Notes: a model not told the origin generated them from the letters alone. Positions 6,999 through 38,120 are shown, numbered from the stretch's first letter. The stretch: DNA of 64,000 nucleotides from Methanocellales archaeon (GCA_028715985.1 JAQUQR010000001.1:267905-331904), one strand, 5' to 3'. A program made the numbers and translations.

Positions 6999-7316
6999 TT
7001 ACATATCTTCGTAGTTCCCTCTCAAAATTCCGCGGTATTTTTTTATTTGCTGGTTGGTGAGTTTCTCGTTGCAGTCCAGTAGGGTTGCGTTGAATGTTTC
7101 GGCTTTGTGTATCAGTGCTTGGGTTTCGTTTCTGGTGATCGTAAAATCGACATAATATTGCTTGTCTACGCGTTCTTTTTTGGCGTCCATTAAGGGCGTG
7201 TTGTCGATTCCATAGAGTTCTTTGAGAAGGACTATTGTTGCAGTGTGGTTTTCGCTTTTTACGCCTGTCCTGTGCAGAAGTGCTAGGGCAGCATAATACA
7301 TGCTGTAGTAGCTCAT
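6999..7316 (-). CDS. HEPN domain protein (toxin partner of the MNT gene)
   Basis: About 100 aa and helical. Lies directly downstream of the nucleotidyltransferase gene on the same strand, the usual MNT-HEPN arrangement. Confidence 0.55.
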   Translation of the reverse strand: MSYYSMYYAALALLHRTGVKSENHTATIVLLKELYGIDNTPLMDAKKERVDKQYYVDFTITRNETQALIHKAETFNATLLDCNEKLTNQQIKKYRGILRGNYEDM

Positions 7317-7403
7317 GCTTACGGATTCCTCGAGTTTGTCGTGTTCAAGAAGTAGTTTGGCTGATGAGAGGTAGCTTCGGCTTTTATCGATGTATGCGTT
7401 TTT

Positions 7404-8006
7404 TTATGGCATCGCTTGCTCATCCAAGCGGAGTTTCCCTTCCTTGGCCAGTTTATTGAAGAATCTTGTTTTTTCATAGTACTCCTCGACTCCCTTGATC
7501 AGGACGTGGTTTTTCATTATCTCCTGTATGAGGGGGTTTTGGGCGTTCCATCCTCCGATTTTCACGCTCAGGCGGGTATTTATTTGCTCGAGTTGTTTTT
7601 TCAGTTCAGGGTCTTGCGTTTCAATGTAGACATCTATGTCGCTTTCAGGGGTTGCCGTGTTTTTCGCGTGGCTTCCGTAGAGCACTGCCAGTTTTATGTC
7701 TGGGTTTTTCTGGATTTCCTGCATTATGCCCCTCAAATGCGGGTATGTGGCGAGGGTTTCTCCCAATTTGTAGTGCTCCGCCATGACTGCAGCGTTTTTT
7801 GTCTCTAAGGTGTCTTTGAGGCGGTAGGTCTTATTTTTGCCGTCCTGCGTGTAGTCTACGACATTGTCTTCCAGGAGTTTTTGTAGCCTGCGGTTTACGG
7901 TAGCATGGCTGGCGTCAAGTCTTCTCGCAAGCTCCCTACTATGGCATCCACCCCTGAGCAACTCCAAAACGATCCTATTGGTCAATTCATGTTCCACATG
8001 TATCAT
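7404..8006 (-). CDS. minimal nucleotidyltransferase (Pol-beta superfamily) with N-terminal wHTH
   Basis: LYGSHAKNTATPESDIDVYIE is the GS...DxD motif of MNT-type nucleotidyltransferases. The N-terminus has an HTH. Confidence 0.75.
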   Translation of the reverse strand: MIHVEHELTNRIVLELLRGGCHSRELARRLDASHATVNRRLQKLLEDNVVDYTQDGKNKTYRLKDTLETKNAAVMAEHYKLGETLATYPHLRGIMQEIQKNPDIKLAVLYGSHAKNTATPESDIDVYIETQDPELKKQLEQINTRLSVKIGGWNAQNPLIQEIMKNHVLIKGVEEYYEKTRFFNKLAKEGKLRLDEQAMP

Positions 8007-15839: not shown

Positions 15840-16151
15840 ATGGCAGAAAGAGTAAGAAATAATTTTGGTTTGATAGAGAATGGGGAAGAAGTTGGCACAT
15901 TCAGTGGACATCAACCACGAGATGCTGCTTTGAAGTGCGCATCAAGAGGGAAGACAAAGATAGTTCTCAGGGAGAAGGGTACTAAAAGGCTTCATCTGTT
16001 CACAGGCTCGAGAGAGAAGGTTACAGCCCCGGCCAGAAAACCAAGTTGGTTGCCCGGCATGGTATGGAAGCCCAATGTCAAGAAGGTCGGAGTAAGACAC
16101 CTGAAATACAACGAGCTATCAAGGAATTCACCGGATATCTTCAGGTTTTAA
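15840..16151 (+). CDS. chromosomal protein MC1
   Basis: About 100 aa and basic. FSGHQPRDAALKCASRG...KIVLREKGTKRLHLF matches the MC1 family, which is restricted to Methanosarcinales, Halobacteria and relatives. Confidence 0.85.
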   Translation: MAERVRNNFGLIENGEEVGTFSGHQPRDAALKCASRGKTKIVLREKGTKRLHLFTGSREKVTAPARKPSWLPGMVWKPNVKKVGVRHLKYNELSRNSPDIFRF

Positions 16152-16841: not shown

Positions 16842-16954
16842 GGACTTGTGGGGTAGTGGACTATCCTCTTGGGCTTCGGACACGAAGTTATCTACTCACT
16901 TTGAAAACTCAAGGAAGATACTCAAGGACCTGGGTTCAAATCCCAGCAGGTCCG
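16842..16954 (+). tRNA. probable intron-containing tRNA (anticodon uncertain; TCG for Arg if the loop is CTTCGG)
   Basis: Acceptor 5' GGACTTG pairs with 3' CAGGTCC (one G-U wobble). T8 is present. D-arm is GGGT/AGTGGACT/ATCC with GG in the loop. A perfect T-arm CTGGG-TTCAAAT-CCCAG is followed by the acceptor 3' strand and discriminator G. The span is about 113 nt, which implies an intron of about 40 nt. Confidence 0.4.
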
Positions 16955-17028
16955 ATCACGAAGGGGGAATTTCATCTGTTGACTTTCCTCATCGAACCGT
17001 TCAAATCCCAGCAGGTCCGATCACGAAG
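16934..17028 (+). repeat. two perfect 30-bp direct repeats (GTTCAAATCCCAGCAGGTCCGATCACGAAG) separated by 35 bp
   Basis: Copy 1 (16934-16963) covers the T-loop through the 3' end of the putative tRNA plus 9 nt of trailer. Copy 2 (16999-17028) lacks a matching 5' T-stem partner. A degenerate third relative lies at about 16869-16888 (..TCGGACACGAAG). Confidence 0.6.
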
Positions 17029-17073: not shown

Positions 17074-17979
17074 TTGATGGTCAAAAAGGTGCTAAAAAAC
17101 ACGAGTTTCATGTTCTTGTTTGCTACCGTACTTGCATTTGTCTATCCTAATGTGGCTATATACCTGGAAAAGTACATGGTCCCAGCTCTAATCTTTCTCA
17201 TGACATTTTCTCTGACAGAGGTTAGGCTGAGAGGACTGGACGTAAAAGCAGAGCTGAATTCCATCGCTGTGGCACTTATGCTGAACTATGTCTTTCTTTC
17301 TGGCATAATCCTGGTGCTGACGATCCTGCTGATCCGAGATGTATCCCTTTTCAGAGGATTTGTCGTTATGGCTGCAATCCCTCCTGCAATTGCGACCGTG
17401 CCATTGAGCACGCTTTTGAAGGGGGATACACGTCTTGCGCTGATGGCGAATGCATCGATCTATGTTTTATCCATCCTTTTGGTGCCGGTTATCCTCCTCC
17501 TTTCCATAGGAACGAGCACCGTTGAACCCCTTCAGATGATGGTGGTCTTAATGGAACTCATCATACTCCCGTTGATCATCTCAAGGGCCATCATCAGAAC
17601 TCCTTACTACGAACTACTGAAGAGGGACCAAAGCATACCAATCAATCTGGGATTTTTTATAGTTACCTACGTGGTCATCGGTCTCAATCGTGACATACTG
17701 TTGCATGAATCAAGCATGCTGTTACTCGTATCGATCATAGCTTTCATGAGGACGTTTTTCTCTGGCACGCTCGTGCATAAAATCTGCGGAATATTTAACG
17801 TACCATTTGAGAGAAAGGTCACATACACATTATTTAGCTCCTATAAAAATCTGGGTCTTGCTGCAACGATCGCTCTACTACTGTTTGGGGTTAGGGCAAC
17901 CATACCCTCGGCGGTTTGCATCTTATTCGAGGTATCCATGTTCACCTATTTCTCGGTTTTGTTCAGAGAAAACAGATAA
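17074..17979 (+). CDS. polytopic membrane protein, AEC/BASS-like permease (family uncertain)
   Basis: About 10 hydrophobic segments across 301 aa. No soluble domain. Confidence 0.4.
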   Translation: MMVKKVLKNTSFMFLFATVLAFVYPNVAIYLEKYMVPALIFLMTFSLTEVRLRGLDVKAELNSIAVALMLNYVFLSGIILVLTILLIRDVSLFRGFVVMAAIPPAIATVPLSTLLKGDTRLALMANASIYVLSILLVPVILLLSIGTSTVEPLQMMVVLMELIILPLIISRAIIRTPYYELLKRDQSIPINLGFFIVTYVVIGLNRDILLHESSMLLLVSIIAFMRTFFSGTLVHKICGIFNVPFERKVTYTLFSSYKNLGLAATIALLLFGVRATIPSAVCILFEVSMFTYFSVLFRENR

Positions 17980-18083: not shown

Positions 18084-18157
18084 AATCGCCAATATTCAAT
18101 CGTCAATATCTCACAAAACATTTTTTTTGGAAAACATCAAAAATAAAAAAGAGAGGA
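18084..18157. repeat. cassette 3'-flank repeat, copy 1 (second copy at 18664-18726)
   Basis: ATCGCCAATATCTCACAA(A/G)ACATTTTTTTTGGAAAACATCAAAAATAAAAAA(G/T)AGAGGAT is shared by both copies. Its oligo-T runs form a minus-strand terminator. Copy 1 ends in the hairpin GAGAGG-ATATAC-CTCTCC. Confidence 0.7.
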
Positions 18158-18202
18158 TATACCTCTCCCTATGTCTTGATTGGTGTTTTGTTGGGGTTTA
18201 CA

Positions 18203-18454
18203 TTAGCCTTCTTCTTCCCCAACTGGTTCTGACCCACTGTACAGGAAATCGGCAGATGTGTCATAGACTAACGGTTTTTCGTTTCTTAAGATGTCTACCA
18301 AACCGTGATAGTCAGCCTCGCTTACAGAGAAGTTACTGTACCCTCCTTCTTGGAAGAATACACGTATCCAACCATATCCTGCGTTGCTTATATCGTCTCC
18401 CTTTCGCCATCCAACTTGGTAGTTTGTTACATGCTTAATTGCCATTTTATTCAC
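18203..18454 (-). CDS. hypothetical protein, cassette A cargo (83 aa, acidic C-terminus)
   Basis: Strong RBS AAGGAGGTGA lies 5 nt before the ATG. No recognisable family. Confidence 0.5.
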   Translation of the reverse strand: MNKMAIKHVTNYQVGWRKGDDISNAGYGWIRVFFQEGGYSNFSVSEADYHGLVDILRNEKPLVYDTSADFLYSGSEPVGEEEG

Positions 18455-18640
18455 CTCCTTTTATTTGGGTATTTATCTTTTTGCAAGGCTTCACCTTGTA
18501 AAGCGCCTGTCACTCTTTATGGGGTTTCATTGTCACTAACAGGTGGTAAGGGTAGATAGATTTATAGATTTATATAGTTAATTATTTAAAATATTGCTCA
18601 ATTTAGGCAATTTTTTTAAGCAATTTTAATAAAAAATATC
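18455..18640 (-). promoter_or_regulatory. cassette A promoter and about 100-nt conserved 5' leader; palindromic operator TTGCTCAATTTAGGCAA (18594-18610) next to a TATA-like AACTATATAAATC
   Basis: About 85% identical to 19298-19530. The same palindrome recurs at the HD-TIR promoter. Confidence 0.55.
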
Positions 18641-18663
18641 AAAAAGAAGAAGGTGTTGGAATT

Positions 18664-18726
18664 TATCGCCAATATCTCACAAGACATTTTTTTTGGAAAA
18701 CATCAAAAATAAAAAATAGAGGATGG
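18664..18726. repeat. cassette 3'-flank repeat, copy 2
   Basis: See 18084-18157. Confidence 0.7.
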
Positions 18727-18778
18727 AAGGAATGCCCCACCCCCTGTCTCTTAATCGCTGTTTCAGTTGTTGCTATTT

Positions 18779-19297
18779 TCAGAACTTTATCTTCTTGCAA
18801 AACTCCTTTATGCCCTTAACGATTTTTAAGTGCTCCTTTTCCTCAACCTCTTCGGCATCTTTGAAATCATTGATTCTAAGGTCCACTTTTTTAAGGATCT
18901 CGGCAGGAGGTAGCTCAGCAGCTTTTGCAAGCACACCTATGGCCCCACCTATCTTATCATCGGGTATCTTAAGTCGTCGTGCATTATCAACCAATGGCTG
19001 GATAATGGATTTAACGCAGTGAGCAAATGTAGGAACTAAAAGATTCACACACATTTCCTCGCCGCAGCGAACAATCACCATGCATCTATCACTTTCGTAG
19101 TTTCCTTGGCCCACAATGCATCCGTGTGCTCGTACGATATAGCATCCTGGAGGAACTTTTAATTCTCTTGGCAGTTCTGCCCAAGGAGCAGATGCGATTA
19201 GTCTACCATGGCAATCAACAACTGTTACTGCTGCCTTGGTAACAAGCGCACAGTCCAAGGTCCTAACCCACACATTAAGTTTTCCATACCCCATCAT
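18779..19297 (-). CDS. hypothetical Cys-rich protein, cassette B cargo (172 aa)
   Basis: Product has about 10 Cys and His (CHGRL, HGC, CMVIVRCGEEMC), suggesting metal or Fe-S binding. No recognisable family. RBS is GGGGTGA. Confidence 0.5.
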   Translation of the reverse strand: MMGYGKLNVWVRTLDCALVTKAAVTVVDCHGRLIASAPWAELPRELKVPPGCYIVRAHGCIVGQGNYESDRCMVIVRCGEEMCVNLLVPTFAHCVKSIIQPLVDNARRLKIPDDKIGGAIGVLAKAAELPPAEILKKVDLRINDFKDAEEVEEKEHLKIVKGIKEFCKKIKF

Positions 19298-19530
19298 TCT
19301 TCACCCCATTTTTTATTCGTGTATTTGCCTTTTGGCAAGGCTCCACCTTGTATAGCGCCCCTCACTCGGCACTCTTTATGGAATTTCATTGTCACTAACG
19401 GGTGGTAGAGATAAATCGATTTATAGATTTATATAGTTAATTAATGATAGTATTGCTTAATTTAAGCAATTTTTATAAATATATTAAAAAATGGGAAGGA
19501 ATTGAAATATTGCTCAATCTAGGCAATTAA
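19298..19530 (-). promoter_or_regulatory. cassette B promoter and leader; two palindromic operators (19454-19470 TTGCTTAATTTAAGCAA and 19510-19526 TTGCTCAATCTAGGCAA) with a TATA-like element
   Basis: Homologous to the cassette A promoter and leader. Confidence 0.55.
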
Positions 19531-19697
19531 CAAAAATACTAAAAAGAAAAGAAAGCACCTTAGCAAGAAAAATTTAACATCCTAGATGAGGGATGCCACC
19601 ACCAGATTTTAGCTATCAGCCTGACCAAAAACCTTTTCATGGAAGTCCAAGTCTGTAGAGCTTTACATGGCGATTTCAACAGAACCTATCTAGTTTA

Positions 19698-19979
19698 TTA
19701 TCTTTCATAGATCGTTTGTCCTTCATACGTGATTCGAAAGATCCTATGGTACGGTATCATTACCGAAGGAGCCCTTCCTTCAGAATCAGGAGGAATATTA
19801 TTAAAGGTGAGGAAGGACTTTCCTATCTCCCCTATCTTATCTCCATGAAGGACCTTGGTATCCTTGGGTGCGCCCCTGTGAATATAGTAAATGTCGCATC
19901 TTGAGAGGTCTAGATCACGCCATTTTATTTCGTTCAATAATTCCCTCGGATGTTTTGATCTGAACATTTTAGGATGCAT
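19698..19979 (-). CDS. conserved archaeal small protein (DUF504-like; assignment tentative)
   Basis: 93 aa. Resembles small archaeal proteins of unknown function. Confidence 0.35.
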   Translation of the reverse strand: MHPKMFRSKHPRELLNEIKWRDLDLSRCDIYYIHRGAPKDTKVLHGDKIGEIGKSFLTFNNIPPDSEGRAPSVMIPYHRIFRITYEGQTIYER

Positions 19980-27272: not shown

Positions 27273-27630
27273 CGTTACTTTTATACAATTCAAGCATGGG
27301 AACATAGGACATTTATGTAGCATATAAACGAGGTAGGCGATATTTATTCCCAATGGAGATAGGCAATGTAGGAAGGACAAACTATCTATAAAAGATGACA
27401 ATTACAATGATTCTATTGTAAAATCAACTTTTTTCAATCATCACAGCCCTACTCAAATTCTATTTGAACCGTCATGTAAAACCACCTTTTCTGCTAGCCT
27501 GAGATTCTCATAGGTTTTTGGTTAGGTTAATAAATAAAATCTAAAGACAGTGCCCCTTATTTCTACAAGAGTGTGGCTAGATTTTTATTGATACGATGCT
27601 GTGTGTTTTTTGTCAATATTACTCAAAAAA

Positions 27631-27686
27631 TTGCTTAAATTAAGCAATATTCTAACTAATTAACTATATCAATAGTGACAATAACA
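27631..27686 (+). promoter_or_regulatory. promoter of the HD-TIR operon: palindromic operator TTGCTTAAATTAAGCAA (27631-27647), then TATA-like TTAACTATATCA and the conserved block TAGTGACAATA
   Basis: Same palindrome, TATA and TAGTGACAAT block as the promoters of cassette genes A and B. Confidence 0.55.
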
Positions 27687-27717
27687 TTTTAATACATAAG
27701 CGAGGGACACGTGCAAA

Positions 27718-29688
27718 ATGCAAGATGAACAAAAAGATCGTTGGGTAGGATGGATTAAAACTCCAGAATATAGAGAACGCCTGCAGACAATAGAGAACCG
27801 TGTTATACAACTGTCATCTAATGAAATCAACACTAGTGGTTATACACCCCACGATGCCAGTCACTGTTTGGCAGTTGAAAATATGGTAAAAACTTTAATT
27901 CAAAAAAGCGAAGCCAAACTTAGCGATTTAGAACAATTTATTCTTTTTGGTGCCGTATGGACGCATGACTTGGGAATGTTCATGGACATACGAGAGGCTT
28001 TTTTCGAGGACCAAAAACAAGAGGTTAAAAAAGGAGAGTATAAACTGCGAGTTGCTAGAGAGATACATGACAAGATTTCAGCATGGTACTTATCTTCTAA
28101 CTACAGTGAGATTCTAAAAATCCAGAGTGATGAAGATGGCCAATCAAAAACTATTATTGACAACTTGTTAAGAAACTATACCTACACTATAAATGTGATA
28201 AGTTGATTTCACCGTATAAGGGAAGACATAAAGGATTGTCCTAAAGAGAGATTACTAAAGGATGAGAAGATACGCACACGCCTATTAGCGTGTTTACTAA
28301 GATTAGGAGATACTTTGCATATTGACTCCAGTAGATTCGATGAAAAACTCTATGATGTCTTAGAAATAGGGCAACTACTGGATAGGAGTGCAAGACTTCA
28401 TTGGCTGAGGTCATATGTTGTGTCTGGTGTATATTTGGATCCTAAAAGTGAAACCATTTTTGTCAACATTGACTTGCCGATATCCTTGAAATCTCCCCAG
28501 AACAACGAATTAGATAGAACGGAGGAGATCAGAAATCTAGTGTCTGTGATTATTAATGACCTTTCCGAAGACGTGCTGGTTGTTAGAGGGACATTTAAGG
28601 ATTATGGTTTTCCCGCCTACGATAGAGTAGAACCCAATATATCTTTCATTCCAGGATATTCGGGAAAGGATGAGAAAGAAATAGAGGGTATGGTGAGTGA
28701 CCTTGGAGTTGTCCTTTTTCCTAATACATCTAGAGTCATAGAGAAAGCCCTTGATAGCATCACCGCTATATGTAATATCTATTTTGGAATTGAAGGTCAG
28801 AGATTTGATAGTCAGATGGATGAATTGTTGTCATATCTCGAAAGTGTACACGAGACTCGGCCCTGTCACGTTGGACTCCGCAAGATAATTGATGAAGCAC
28901 GTGATGTGTTTAATAATAGATCCTATCAGAATAAGAATAGGGGAGATGTATCAAGTCAGGATATAAAGAAATGTCAAGATAATATCTGCGCAAAACTCAA
29001 TGAAATCAAAGATAAAAGAGAAGGATATCTAAAAAGCCTGTATAAAAAATGTGAAGACAACTTGCTGGATGACTTCGAAAACATAATTCTTTTTGCATAC
29101 AGTGAAACAGTAACTCAATTTCTTGAAAAGTATGGTGAACACCACCCTTCATGGAAAGATCGAGTTAAACTCTATGTATTAGAGTGTGGTGGGAAAAGAC
29201 GTTTTACGCGCAACAATAACATAGACTACAATGATGGTATATATTACGCGTTCCAGCTATCAAAGCACGGTTTCAAGAAAAAAGATCAAATCATGTTGTT
29301 GCCAGACACATCCTTTGGTTCTCTTGCATACAACCTGAAGAATCAAAATATGGCAAAAAAGTCTTTGGTCCTATTTGGGGTTAATGGCATCGATAAAGAG
29401 AGCCATGACTGCGGGCACACATCTGGGCATCGCATGGTAGCAATCGTGGCACAAGAATCCAGAATCCAAGTCAAGGTTATTGCAGATAGTTTCAAGGTAG
29501 GGAAAATAGAGTGGAGCCCCATGCTTGAGAGACCCGCTCACTGGCTAACAGGCAAACGGGACATGTATAGTGACATAAAAAAACACAACATCAAACTGAC
29601 AAACTATTTAGAAGATAGAATTCCAATAGATCTAATAAATGAGATAATCAAAGATGGGGATAACATACCTGGAAAGGCTAAAAAATAA
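27718..29688 (+). CDS. HD-domain phosphohydrolase or nuclease fused to a large uncharacterised C-terminal region (about 656 codons); one in-frame TGA at 28204-28206 (candidate pseudogene or recoding)
   Basis: HD motifs are SHCLAV (His), WTHDLGM (His-Asp), REIHDKIS and LLRLGDTLHID. The last motif lies after the TGA in the same frame, so ORFs 27718-28206 and 28315-29688 form one reading frame. The C-terminal part includes a Gly-rich VLFGVNGIDKESHDCGHTSGH segment reminiscent of Rossmann-like ligand-binding folds. Confidence 0.6.
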
Positions 29689-30537
29689 ATGTCTGCAACT
29701 CGATTTAATCTTTCGCCTAATGATGTTGATGTATCCGATACAAAAATTTTTATTTCTTACAAAACGAAGGAATGGGAATACGCTAAAAAACTTAGCGAAG
29801 AACTGAGAAATTTAGGCTTTGGTATTATAATTGTTCCTCCACAACCATCAAGTTCTCCAAAAAAGAAGAATGAAGATATTAAAACATACCTTTCTGAACT
29901 AATAGATGATGCTGATTACATATGTATAATAGTCTCCGAAATGTCTCTCATGTCAGCTTGGGTTCAATACGAATTTAAGGAAGCTGCTAGTTTGATTGGT
30001 CGAGTTGTTTTCGTTAATAAAGATAATACGCAACTTTTTTCAGGATATGAAGCAGTTGATTACCTTCAAAAGGGATTTATATGGCGGAATTTATATGTAA
30101 AACATTCCACTCTTACATTACCGGAAATTACAAATGAGGGTGTAAATGAACTTGCTATACAATTACTAAATGATCCAGACGAAGGTTGGTATGATGGTCG
30201 AGTATCGGTTGGTCGAAGATGCCCAGCAAAAGGATTGCGTTATCAAAATAGGATGAAAAAATATGCCAGAGAGTGTGTTTTGGTAGATCCCAAATATGAG
30301 CATAAGTATGTTCTAGAGGTAATTCCATTTAATTGGAGCCAAATAGAATGCGATAAAGAAGATATGGAAGCTGTCTTAAAATCAATTATTCTGGATCGAG
30401 GACTCCTAAATCTTGAAAGATCTTTTCTTAATGATGAAGTAGACATTTTTCAAACTTGGTACTTCGTAACGGAATTTGAAGAATTTTTAGAAAAAGATGA
30501 TTTTGGTCTTAACGTTTTTGTTGTGTTAGAGCGCTGA
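29689..30537 (+). CDS. TIR-domain protein (N-terminal TIR of about 130 aa plus a C-terminal domain of unknown function)
   Basis: KIFISYKTKEWEYAKKLSEELRNLGFGIIIV matches the TIR betaA-alphaA-betaB segment. ADYICIIVSEMSLMSAWVQYEF matches the SxWCxxEL region that carries the putative catalytic Glu. The ATG directly abuts the HD gene's TAA. Confidence 0.65.
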   Translation: MSATRFNLSPNDVDVSDTKIFISYKTKEWEYAKKLSEELRNLGFGIIIVPPQPSSSPKKKNEDIKTYLSELIDDADYICIIVSEMSLMSAWVQYEFKEAASLIGRVVFVNKDNTQLFSGYEAVDYLQKGFIWRNLYVKHSTLTLPEITNEGVNELAIQLLNDPDEGWYDGRVSVGRRCPAKGLRYQNRMKKYARECVLVDPKYEHKYVLEVIPFNWSQIECDKEDMEAVLKSIILDRGLLNLERSFLNDEVDIFQTWYFVTEFEEFLEKDDFGLNVFVVLER

Positions 30538-30685: not shown

Positions 30686-30706
30686 ACCTCAACCACTACT
30701 CCACAA

Positions 30707-30762
30707 ACATCAAGGGATAGTCCAGCTTCTCATCATATCTCATAATTCCCGCGACCTTGGCA
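30707..30762. repeat. 56-bp perfect direct repeat, distal copy (duplicate of the mptD 3' end)
   Basis: Identical to 32662-32717. Confidence 0.9.
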
Positions 30763-32645: not shown

Positions 32646-32650
32646 GCCCC

Positions 32651-32983
32651 CTACTCTATAGACATCAAGGGATAGTCCAGCTTCTCATCATATCTCATAA
32701 TTCCCGCGACCTTGGCAGAGCCATATTGCACCTCTATGTGCACGTCCAGCATCCTGCCCTCCAGCTCGCAATAGCCGAATTTATTCAGCTTTTCCTGGAC
32801 CCTGTCGCGGTCTATCAAGACCTTTGCGCTTAACACGTATGGCTGAGCTGAGACGCTCTTCTCGATGGCGCGCTCTAAGCTGTCCAGCGTCTCCATGTTG
32901 AGGGGTGCGCCCGTATACTGGTGATACAGCGCCCCCAGCTTGATGCCAAGCTCGAATAACGCGCGCTCTCTATCCGATCGCAT
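32651..32983 (-). CDS. dihydroneopterin aldolase, archaeal MptD-like (assignment tentative)
   Basis: About 110 aa. Resembles the COG2098 family. Its 3'-terminal 56 bp are duplicated at 30707-30762. Confidence 0.45.
   Translation of the reverse strand: MRSDRERALFELGIKLGALYHQYTGAPLNMETLDSLERAIEKSVSAQPYVLSAKVLIDRDRVQEKLNKFGYCELEGRMLDVHIEVQYGSAKVAGIMRYDEKLDYPLMSIE
32662..32717. repeat. 56-bp perfect direct repeat, proximal copy (within the 3' end of mptD)
   Basis: Identical to 30707-30762. Confidence 0.9.
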
Positions 32984-37697: not shown

Positions 37698-38120
37698 CTA
37701 AAGCCCCTCTCCAGGGCTGGTGGTCGTCAGTTTAACATGCTTCACACCCTTTAACGCCATCATCTTCTCCACGATATTCTTGACCTCTTGCGATTCACCC
37801 CTCACTAGTATGACTTCCAGACAATTTCTCTCATCCAAATGAACGTGAAGCGAAGATTCTATAAGGTTTGAATAGTCATGCTCTATGTCAGTAAGCTCGT
37901 CAACCAATCCTCTCTGGCTATGGTCAAAGATGAGTGTGATTGTTCCGACTCGATCCCCTTTTTGCTGGCTCATCCACTCATAGTCAACGATGTAGTTCCT
38001 TATCGCATCCCTGATGCCCTCTGATCGGGAAGAGTATCCTCTTAGCGATATAATTTCATCGAATCTACCCAGCAAATTGGCCGGGAGAGATACTCCAATT
38101 CTCATTAGGCCCTTCTTCAT
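37698..38120 (-). CDS. nikR: nickel-responsive transcriptional regulator NikR
   Basis: RHH N-terminus ([19 protein letters not shown]) and an ACT-like C-terminus with His and Cys ligands. Confidence 0.8.

Follow-up and report, generated by a model that had tools for sequence, protein, structure and literature searches.

A predicted palindromic operator upstream of a TIR-domain operon and two small genes in a Methanocellales archaeon, and its probable link to an Msr/FilR1-type regulator

Background

Archaeal transcription factors that bind upstream of the BRE usually act positively. Ptr2, and the Lrp-type Ss-LrpB on its own promoter, act from a site just upstream of the BRE/TATA element; sites of this kind are palindromes bound by a dimer, lie at the regulator's own gene and are often duplicated upstream.

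Msr proteins are made of an HTH domain and a DUF1724 domain, and are reported to be activators of methyltransferase gene transcription (bioRxiv 10.1101/2021.03.04.434021; 10.1101/2025.05.05.652248). In the literature searched, no operator sequence is reported for Msr or for FilR1, and the palindrome described below is not mentioned.

Here we analyse a 64,000-nucleotide stretch of a Methanocellales archaeon genome (hereafter, the window). A sequence-only reading had noted that the promoter of an operon encoding HD and TIR domains (the HD–TIR unit) carries a 17-bp palindrome that recurs at two small genes, here g172 and g83, and had proposed that one regulator controls all three, as in a defence island with a dedicated repressor. 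Comparison with other archaeal genomes leads us to a different assignment. We give a probability of about 0.6 to the reading that the palindrome is the operator of an Msr/FilR1-type regulator, that the module containing it was copied onto accessory genes, and that the resulting units are co-regulated.

Genomic setting

The window is archaeal in content, with the chromatin protein MC1 (15840–16151) and archaeal replication and transcription genes; a sigma-70 promoter scan was uninformative, the host being an archaeon. An intron-containing tRNA lies at 16842–16954 (found with Rfam, missed by ARAGORN). The last 30 nt of the tRNA (16934–16963) are repeated exactly 65 nt downstream (16999–17028), like the scar of an att site. 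No integrase was found near the repeated end, and the ORF considered as a candidate for one (17074–17979) encodes an ACR3-like membrane protein. Elsewhere, a 70-nt direct repeat of 94% identity (30693–30762 and 32648–32717, the second copy being the 3′ end of a DHNA gene at 32651–32983, minus strand) brackets 1.9 kb with OmdA/DUF8412, cupin and truncated TauE genes, which suggests an insertion or duplication junction.

Predicted operator sites and promoter geometry

The palindrome TTGCTTAAATTAAGCAA at 27631–27647 is perfect (8+1+8), as originally described. Allowing up to three mismatches, it has seven strand-matches in the 64 kb, corresponding to four sites at three promoters; shuffled versions of the window have a mean of 0.5 matches, and none of 100 shuffles reached seven. 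The recurrences described before, one at g83 and two at g172, were all recovered, the g172 proximal core lying at 19453–19469 and not, as given earlier, at 19454–19470. This proximal core has the same sequence as that of the HD–TIR unit, and the g172 distal operator lies 57 nt upstream of it. The operators and the elements that accompany them are as follows.

27628–27650, plus strand: HD–TIR operator, extended palindrome AAATTGCTTAAATTAAGCAATAT, core 27631–27647, 35.6 of 37.7 bits with the matrix of foreign sites
27660–27671, plus strand: BRE/TATA-like element TTAACTATATCA of the HD–TIR unit, starting 12 nt past the palindrome core
27673–27682, plus strand: TAGTGACAAT block of the HD–TIR unit, a homology relic
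19507–19529, minus strand: g172 distal operator, core 19510–19526 (TTGCCTAGATTGAGCAA), three mismatches, 25.0 bits
19450–19472, minus strand: g172 proximal operator, core 19453–19469, 29.3 bits
19431–19440, minus strand: TATA-like element TTAACTATAT of g172, 12 nt past the proximal palindrome
18591–18613, minus strand: g83 operator, core 18594–18610 (TTGCCTAAATTGAGCAA), two mismatches, 31.5 bits
18572–18581, minus strand: TATA-like element TTAACTATAT of g83, 12 nt past the palindrome

The bit scores come from a position matrix built from 12 regulator-proximal sites (described below), all of them in other genomes. This matrix finds exactly these four sites in the window (25.0–35.6 bits, for a maximum of 37.7) and none elsewhere in the 64 kb. 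On shuffled sequence it gives 0.24 hits of 8 bits or more, with a best score of 20.7. Six further loci, each containing an orthologue of either the regulator or g172 (L234, L238, L242, L243, L245 and L255), have one or two sites per 7–13 kb; across the 16-kb locus L246 the matrix finds none. The window has about 69 ORFs of 90 aa or more and the operator marks only three promoters, so that it is not a general archaeal core-promoter element. Within the 64 kb, the palindrome is thus not the common promoter element that would have spoken against a small regulon.

The distance from the proximal palindrome to the TATA-like element is invariant. In all three promoters, the terminal GCAA of the palindrome is followed by exactly 12 nt and then by TTAACTATAT, a sequence that occurs only three times in the window (27660–27669, plus strand; 19431–19440 and 18572–18581, minus strand) and on average 0.3 times in shuffled sequence. 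The block TAGTGACAAT, which had been described as a third part of the promoter architecture, also has exactly three copies in the window, one per operator-bearing promoter. However, it follows the TATA-like element by 3 nt at the HD–TIR unit and by 33 nt at g172 and g83, and it is absent from the relative L245 and from all regulator promoters compared. Its variable position identifies it as a relic of common ancestry and not as a fixed promoter element. We therefore reject it as a third promoter element.

The putatively regulated genes

The palindrome precedes three units with unrelated products, listed here with their terminators.

27718–29688, plus strand: gene of 656 codons with HD-CE and IF-2B-like regions, split by an in-frame TGA at 28207–28209
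29689–30537, plus strand: TIR-domain gene (TIR_2/ThsB-like; Pfam, and PADLOC ThsB E = 8e-6), last of the HD–TIR unit
18779–19297, minus strand: g172, a cysteine-rich protein of 172 aa, modelled with AF2 as a beta-sandwich plus four helices (pLDDT 73)
18718–18745, minus strand: terminator-like hairpin and T-run of g172, inside the conserved cassette end (18665–18724)
18203–18448, minus strand: g83, a protein of 81 aa, with start ATG at 18448–18446
18148–18170, minus strand: terminator-like hairpin and T-run of g83, overlapped and passed by the repeat D6 copy at 18099–18158

On either side of the in-frame TGA lie ORFs of 162 aa and 457 aa. When the stop is read through, the HD-CE score climbs from 48 to 107 bits and the match covers model positions 3–228 of 263. 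Every assembly that carries the gene has this identical TGA, namely four NCBI MAGs and three Logan assemblies. The gene is either a pseudogene or the subject of a recoding event, and the HD–TIR unit may, given this stop, be decaying or inactive. The TIR protein scores 27.9 bits against PF08937 (cut-off 21.2) and 37.6 bits against TIR_2, and 18.7 bits against NCBIfam ThcB4 (cut-off 220). In pairing a ThsB-like TIR protein with a putative effector, the unit resembles Thoeris (TIR protein ThsB and ThsA). However, the effector is an HD-CE and IF-2B-like fusion and not SIR2 or TM–SLOG, and family scores are weak; a search of the unit for a ThsA-type effector (SIR2, or TM plus SLOG) returned HD-CE and a weak IF-2B-like match only, and PADLOC gives no hit for the fusion protein. 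The unit is thus a Thoeris-like candidate without a recognizable ThsA.

Neither g172 nor g83 has a match in protein-family searches. Eight homologues of g172 were found, and its AF2 model yields generic beta-sandwich fold matches only, from which no function could be assigned. The role of antitoxins or co-induced accessory factors once suggested for the two small genes is unsupported, and their proteins carry no hallmark of a toxin or an antitoxin.

The g172-family leader (19298–19397 and 18449–18538 in the window) is conserved down to homologues of 57% identity. In two of these loci it overlaps a short lysine/arginine-rich ORF (L246:5380–5475 and L247:1388–1517; 40 aa in L247), and the window g172 leader could encode MKFHKECRVRGAIQGG... 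A structured RNA leader common to g172 and g83 was considered and set aside, as the RNAalifold consensus reaches only −1.9 kcal/mol and lacks convincing covariation; Rfam has no match at the leader.

Duplicated blocks and the history of the cassettes

The copies of the palindrome in the window sit within homologous blocks of 65–300 bp, which also contain leader and terminator sequence and the remnant of an upstream gene. The promoter of g83 (18568–18635) and that of the HD–TIR unit (27606–27673) align over 68 nt with 79% identity; the g172 promoter (19427–19491) and that of the HD–TIR unit (27609–27673) align over 65 nt with 82% identity. The promoter and leader of g83 (18511–18632) and g172 (19370–19491) are 83% identical over 122 nt, and their terminator blocks 95% identical over 60 nt (repeat D6, 18099–18158 and 18665–18724). 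Promoter, leader and terminator of g83 are thus copies of those of g172. The upstream region of the HD–TIR unit (27368–27717) is an inverted copy of about 300 bp of the g172 upstream region, of which one segment is listed here.

27368–27627, plus strand: duplicated segment upstream of the HD–TIR unit, matching 19470–19728 in inverted orientation (inverted repeats I3 and I5)

An MJ1316-domain gene precedes g172, and a relic of the 3′ end of that gene is found upstream of the HD–TIR unit (27368–27401, corresponding to 19695–19728), where the frame reads 'EGQTIYKR*' as opposed to 'YEGQTIYER*'. The three window copies are thus not independent and are largely explained as recent paralogues of one promoter cassette, so that their mutual similarity by itself proves little.

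More can be learned from which parts of the module have diverged. Among six modules of the lineage, pairwise identity is 92% in the palindrome and 100% in TTAACTATAT, compared with 73% in the 12-nt spacer, 59% in the 20 nt upstream and 49% in the 20 nt downstream. This pattern indicates that the palindrome is under selection within the duplicated modules.

Relatives show the cassettes in other arrangements. In the syntenic L252, g172 is 87% identical and has both palindromes with the same 57-nt spacing, but the g83 cassette is missing and g172 directly abuts the ACR3-like gene (L252:1–1100 compared with window 18099–19530). In L245, g172 is 81% identical and lies in another genomic context, with the whole 830-bp cassette kept (equivalent to window 19489–18659). 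L245 has a second module, composed of TTGCTTAAATTAATCAA, 12 nt and TTAACTATATAA, which appears to drive an operon made of a DUF2589 gene and two genes without family matches (L245:12098–13056); a g172-like C-terminal fragment precedes this module. The palindrome is absent from g172 homologues of 57–68% identity (L246, L247 and L257), which suggests that the link between g172 and the operator is young and lineage-specific. An integron-like nature of the cassettes was considered and rejected: there is no integrase in 16.4–20 kb, the palindrome is at the 5′ side together with a TATA element, and the 3′ ends are hairpin/T-run terminators.

The inverted duplication of about 300 bp (19427–19728 and 27368–27673) brackets 7.6 kb with MJ1316-domain, DHH/RecJ-like, argC, CBS, argJ, argB and ArgZ-like genes, and could mediate inversion of this segment. 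In relatives and in Logan runs, the assemblies are broken close to the repeat copies.

The palindrome at regulator genes of other archaea

Pattern scans of public genomes and metagenomes list mostly chance matches (bacterial ones in the 17-mer genome scan), but one archaeal context recurs. In it, the palindrome lies directly upstream of a gene for a protein of 260–300 aa, in which a winged helix (PF25213/HTH_5) is combined with a FilR1_middle/DUF1724 domain (PF08350), the make-up of the Msr family. Next to the regulator gene, the palindrome is often extended to ATATTGCTTAAATTRAGCAATAT and often paired. This arrangement was found by motif in four genome loci (L022, L064, L076 and L087) and at least 14 metagenome loci, and occurs in Methanoperedens, other Methanosarcinales, ANME-1 and Methanomicrobiaceae.

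Loci found by motif are biased towards the motif, and we thus used as a control six regulator loci picked by protein identity alone: L234, L238, L242 and L243 (Methanoperedens-type), L253 (ANME-1/Methanophagales) and L255/L256 (Methanomicrobiaceae). In each of the six, a TTGC-N9-GCAA-type palindrome precedes a TATA element (TTAACTATATA, TTAAGTATATA or TTAGATATATAA) directly upstream of the regulator gene. The gap between the two is 12 nt, or 11–12 nt in L255, depending on how the divergent TTAGATATATAA is delimited; in L234, L238, L242, L243 and L253, the 12-nt spacing is to TTAACTATAT or TTAAGTATAT. The palindrome lies 68–120 nt from the start codon of the regulator gene. Thus, the geometry seen in the window is also that of regulator promoters in distant orders.

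The neighbours of the regulator gene vary while the palindrome stays. The upstream neighbour is Roadblock/KaiC in Methanoperedens-type loci and a PAS/GAF kinase in L253 and L255; the regulator gene is usually followed by that of a UbiA prenyltransferase. In Methanoperedens-type loci, one strand encodes a sensor kinase, two small ORFs, a double-domain KaiC and a Roadblock/LC7 protein, and the other the Msr-type regulator, UbiA and then LeuRS (L064, L076, L234, L238 and L242; L243 ends at the regulator gene, and the UbiA/LeuRS order rests on the remaining loci). The distal palindrome of these loci faces the Roadblock–KaiC operon. Between 437 and 548 close homologues of the regulator were found.

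The motif also occurs in other archaeal contexts: at KaiC-like ATPases, at small HTH_45 proteins followed by response regulators or KaiC, at response-regulator and kinase genes, at a PAS kinase, and at two secreted ANME-1 proteins (one with DUF4114, one without a family match). Taken together, these contexts look like those of a signalling regulon. In the ANME-1 locus L017, the palindrome is just downstream of the TATA box, a repressor-type position. From the palindrome to the TATATA core there are 23 and 26 nt in other contexts, as opposed to 17 nt in the 12-nt class; these values show no consistent helical phasing of operator and TATA element, about which we make no claim. A 31-bp perfect palindrome with the same core, CCTATAATTGCTTAGATTAAGCAATTATAGG, is found in IMG/VR viral and metagenome contigs (twice in L127, at 1834–1852 and 2343–2361; in L129 at 7299–7317; in L151 and L209) and is probably unrelated.

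The sequence-only reading had advised looking for the regulator gene, for example an HTH protein, beside other copies of the palindrome. In the window, no regulator or HTH gene adjoins any operator copy, and neither tblastn nor the regulator-family profile finds an Msr/FilR1-type regulator in the 64 kb. The best 120 matches of the family profile, together with a name look-up, include no member of the Methanocellales, and the regulator orthologues P0009, P0043, P0068 and P0014 are all in MAGs other than the source. With the regulator gene outside the window, control would be in trans. Two HTH-type proteins were seen among the scanned ORFs (mostly up to about 40.5 kb): NikR (37698–38120) and a fusion of a winged helix (HTH_24) with a Pol-beta-type nucleotidyltransferase (7404–8006, minus strand), which is not of the Msr type.

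Alternative explanations

The comparative data show that the palindrome precedes the regulator gene, and do not by themselves identify the protein that binds it. Control of the Msr-type regulator gene, and of the window units with it, by a different factor would account for the comparative data just as well. In addition, some copies of the motif lie at KaiC-like, HTH_45, response-regulator/kinase and secreted-protein genes where the stretch retrieved contains no Msr gene. We nevertheless regard this as unlikely: over at least four orders the palindrome stays with the regulator gene although its neighbours vary, as is typical of autoregulation, and no alternative factor consistently co-occurs with the palindrome. 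A second possibility is that the palindrome merely hitch-hikes, kept only because the copies are young, with no shared regulation. The blocks do include non-promoter material (gene relic, leader and terminator), but within them the palindrome and TATA element stand out from flanks of 49–59% identity, and identical geometry is found in distant orders without such duplication. We consider the chance of hitch-hiking to be small.

Recombination offers yet another reading, in which the palindrome is the 5′ boundary of mobile cassettes and is used by a recombinase. In three comparisons, the cassette homology sets in some 20 nt before the palindrome (19489–19491 in the window), relatives differ in whether they have the g83 cassette, and modules carry relics of former upstream neighbours. 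However, there is no integrase or transposase near the window cassettes, and the fixed 12-nt distance to the TATA element at a conserved single-copy regulator gene fits transcription, making such a site very improbable. The proposal of a defence-island repressor with co-induced accessory or antitoxin genes draws on the one unit that encodes TIR and HD-CE effector-like proteins. Against it stand the absence of any adjoining regulator gene, the housekeeping neighbours (tRNA, MC1, DHH/RecJ-like, argC/J/B and ArgZ-like genes), small proteins that resemble neither toxins nor antitoxins, an HD–TIR promoter copied locally from the region upstream of g172, and an operator held in common with a non-defence regulator locus (KaiC, Roadblock, UbiA and LeuRS) in many archaea. 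This proposal is accordingly disfavoured, and we consider it very improbable. Instead, the three units are probably switched together by an Msr/FilR1-type factor.

Discussion

We propose that the palindrome (17 bp, or 23 bp with flanks) would be the site of a dimeric Msr/FilR1-type regulator made of an ArsR-like winged HTH and a FilR1_middle/DUF1724 domain. The operator–TATA unit would form the promoter of the regulator's own gene in many Halobacteriota, implying autoregulation. Within the lineage to which this MAG belongs, local duplication and recombination may have placed copies of the unit before accessory genes: g172, g83 and the HD-CE/IF-2B-like/TIR operon in the window, and the DUF2589 operon in a relative. 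A single regulator, encoded at another locus of the genome and acting in trans, would then control all these recipients. The idea of one regulator for the HD–TIR unit and the two small genes is thus retained, in that the units have a transcription-factor-like common site, selectively conserved and with a geometry found across orders. It is modified in that the shared architecture is largely the product of local cassette duplication, and does not represent three independent operators.

The predicted site is centred about 27 bp upstream of the middle of the TATA element, at about −53 from the expected transcription start, and abuts the BRE. We lean towards activation via recruitment of TFB/TBP, because the site is upstream of the BRE/TATA element and characterized Msr proteins are activators. 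Repression by occlusion of the BRE has a somewhat less than even chance.

Duplication of a promoter cassette would provide a way for accessory genes to gain regulation, and accounts for a promoter common to three unrelated units. More tentatively, a portable module derived from the Msr autoregulatory promoter might wire strain-variable cassettes, including the TIR/HD operon, into a KaiC/Roadblock-linked circuit; we hold this broader view to be rather doubtful. If true, expression of the cargo would be gated by a conserved sensor of cellular state rather than by a regulator specific to the system.

Regulators of the Msr/FilR1 type are widespread among methanogens and methane- or alkane-oxidising archaea, and the present analysis suggests a precise candidate site for this type, ATATTGCTTAAATTAAGCAATAT located 12 nt before TTAACTATATA. 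What is new is a predicted operator for an uncharacterized orthogroup of a known transcription-factor family, together with a first sketch of its regulon: the regulator and UbiA, KaiC-like ATPases and Roadblock proteins, and kinases and response regulators. This is an ordinary case of an operator and its regulon, and not a new kind of defence-island control.

Several known systems share some of these features. As in WYL/BrxR- and CapH/CapP-type systems, a palindromic operator fronts a defence-like operon; however, the window has no adjacent regulator, and the operator is common to unrelated genes and the regulator locus. The sites used by Ptr2 and Ss-LrpB are similar in layout but are bound by a different protein family, and the Ss-LrpB box, TTGYAW-N3-WTRCAA, resembles the window palindrome without being equal to it. 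The nearest comparison is with Msr (MsrA–G of Methanosarcina, MA4375) and FilR1 (Methanothrix harundinacea). The candidate regulator belongs to another orthogroup, encoded beside UbiA (and Roadblock/KaiC in Methanoperedens-type loci); the predicted window targets, unlike those of Msr, are not methyltransferase genes, and binding is here a prediction. With Msr and FilR1, the candidate shares the combination of PF25213/HTH_5 and PF08350, and it is likewise encoded near sensor kinases and signalling proteins.
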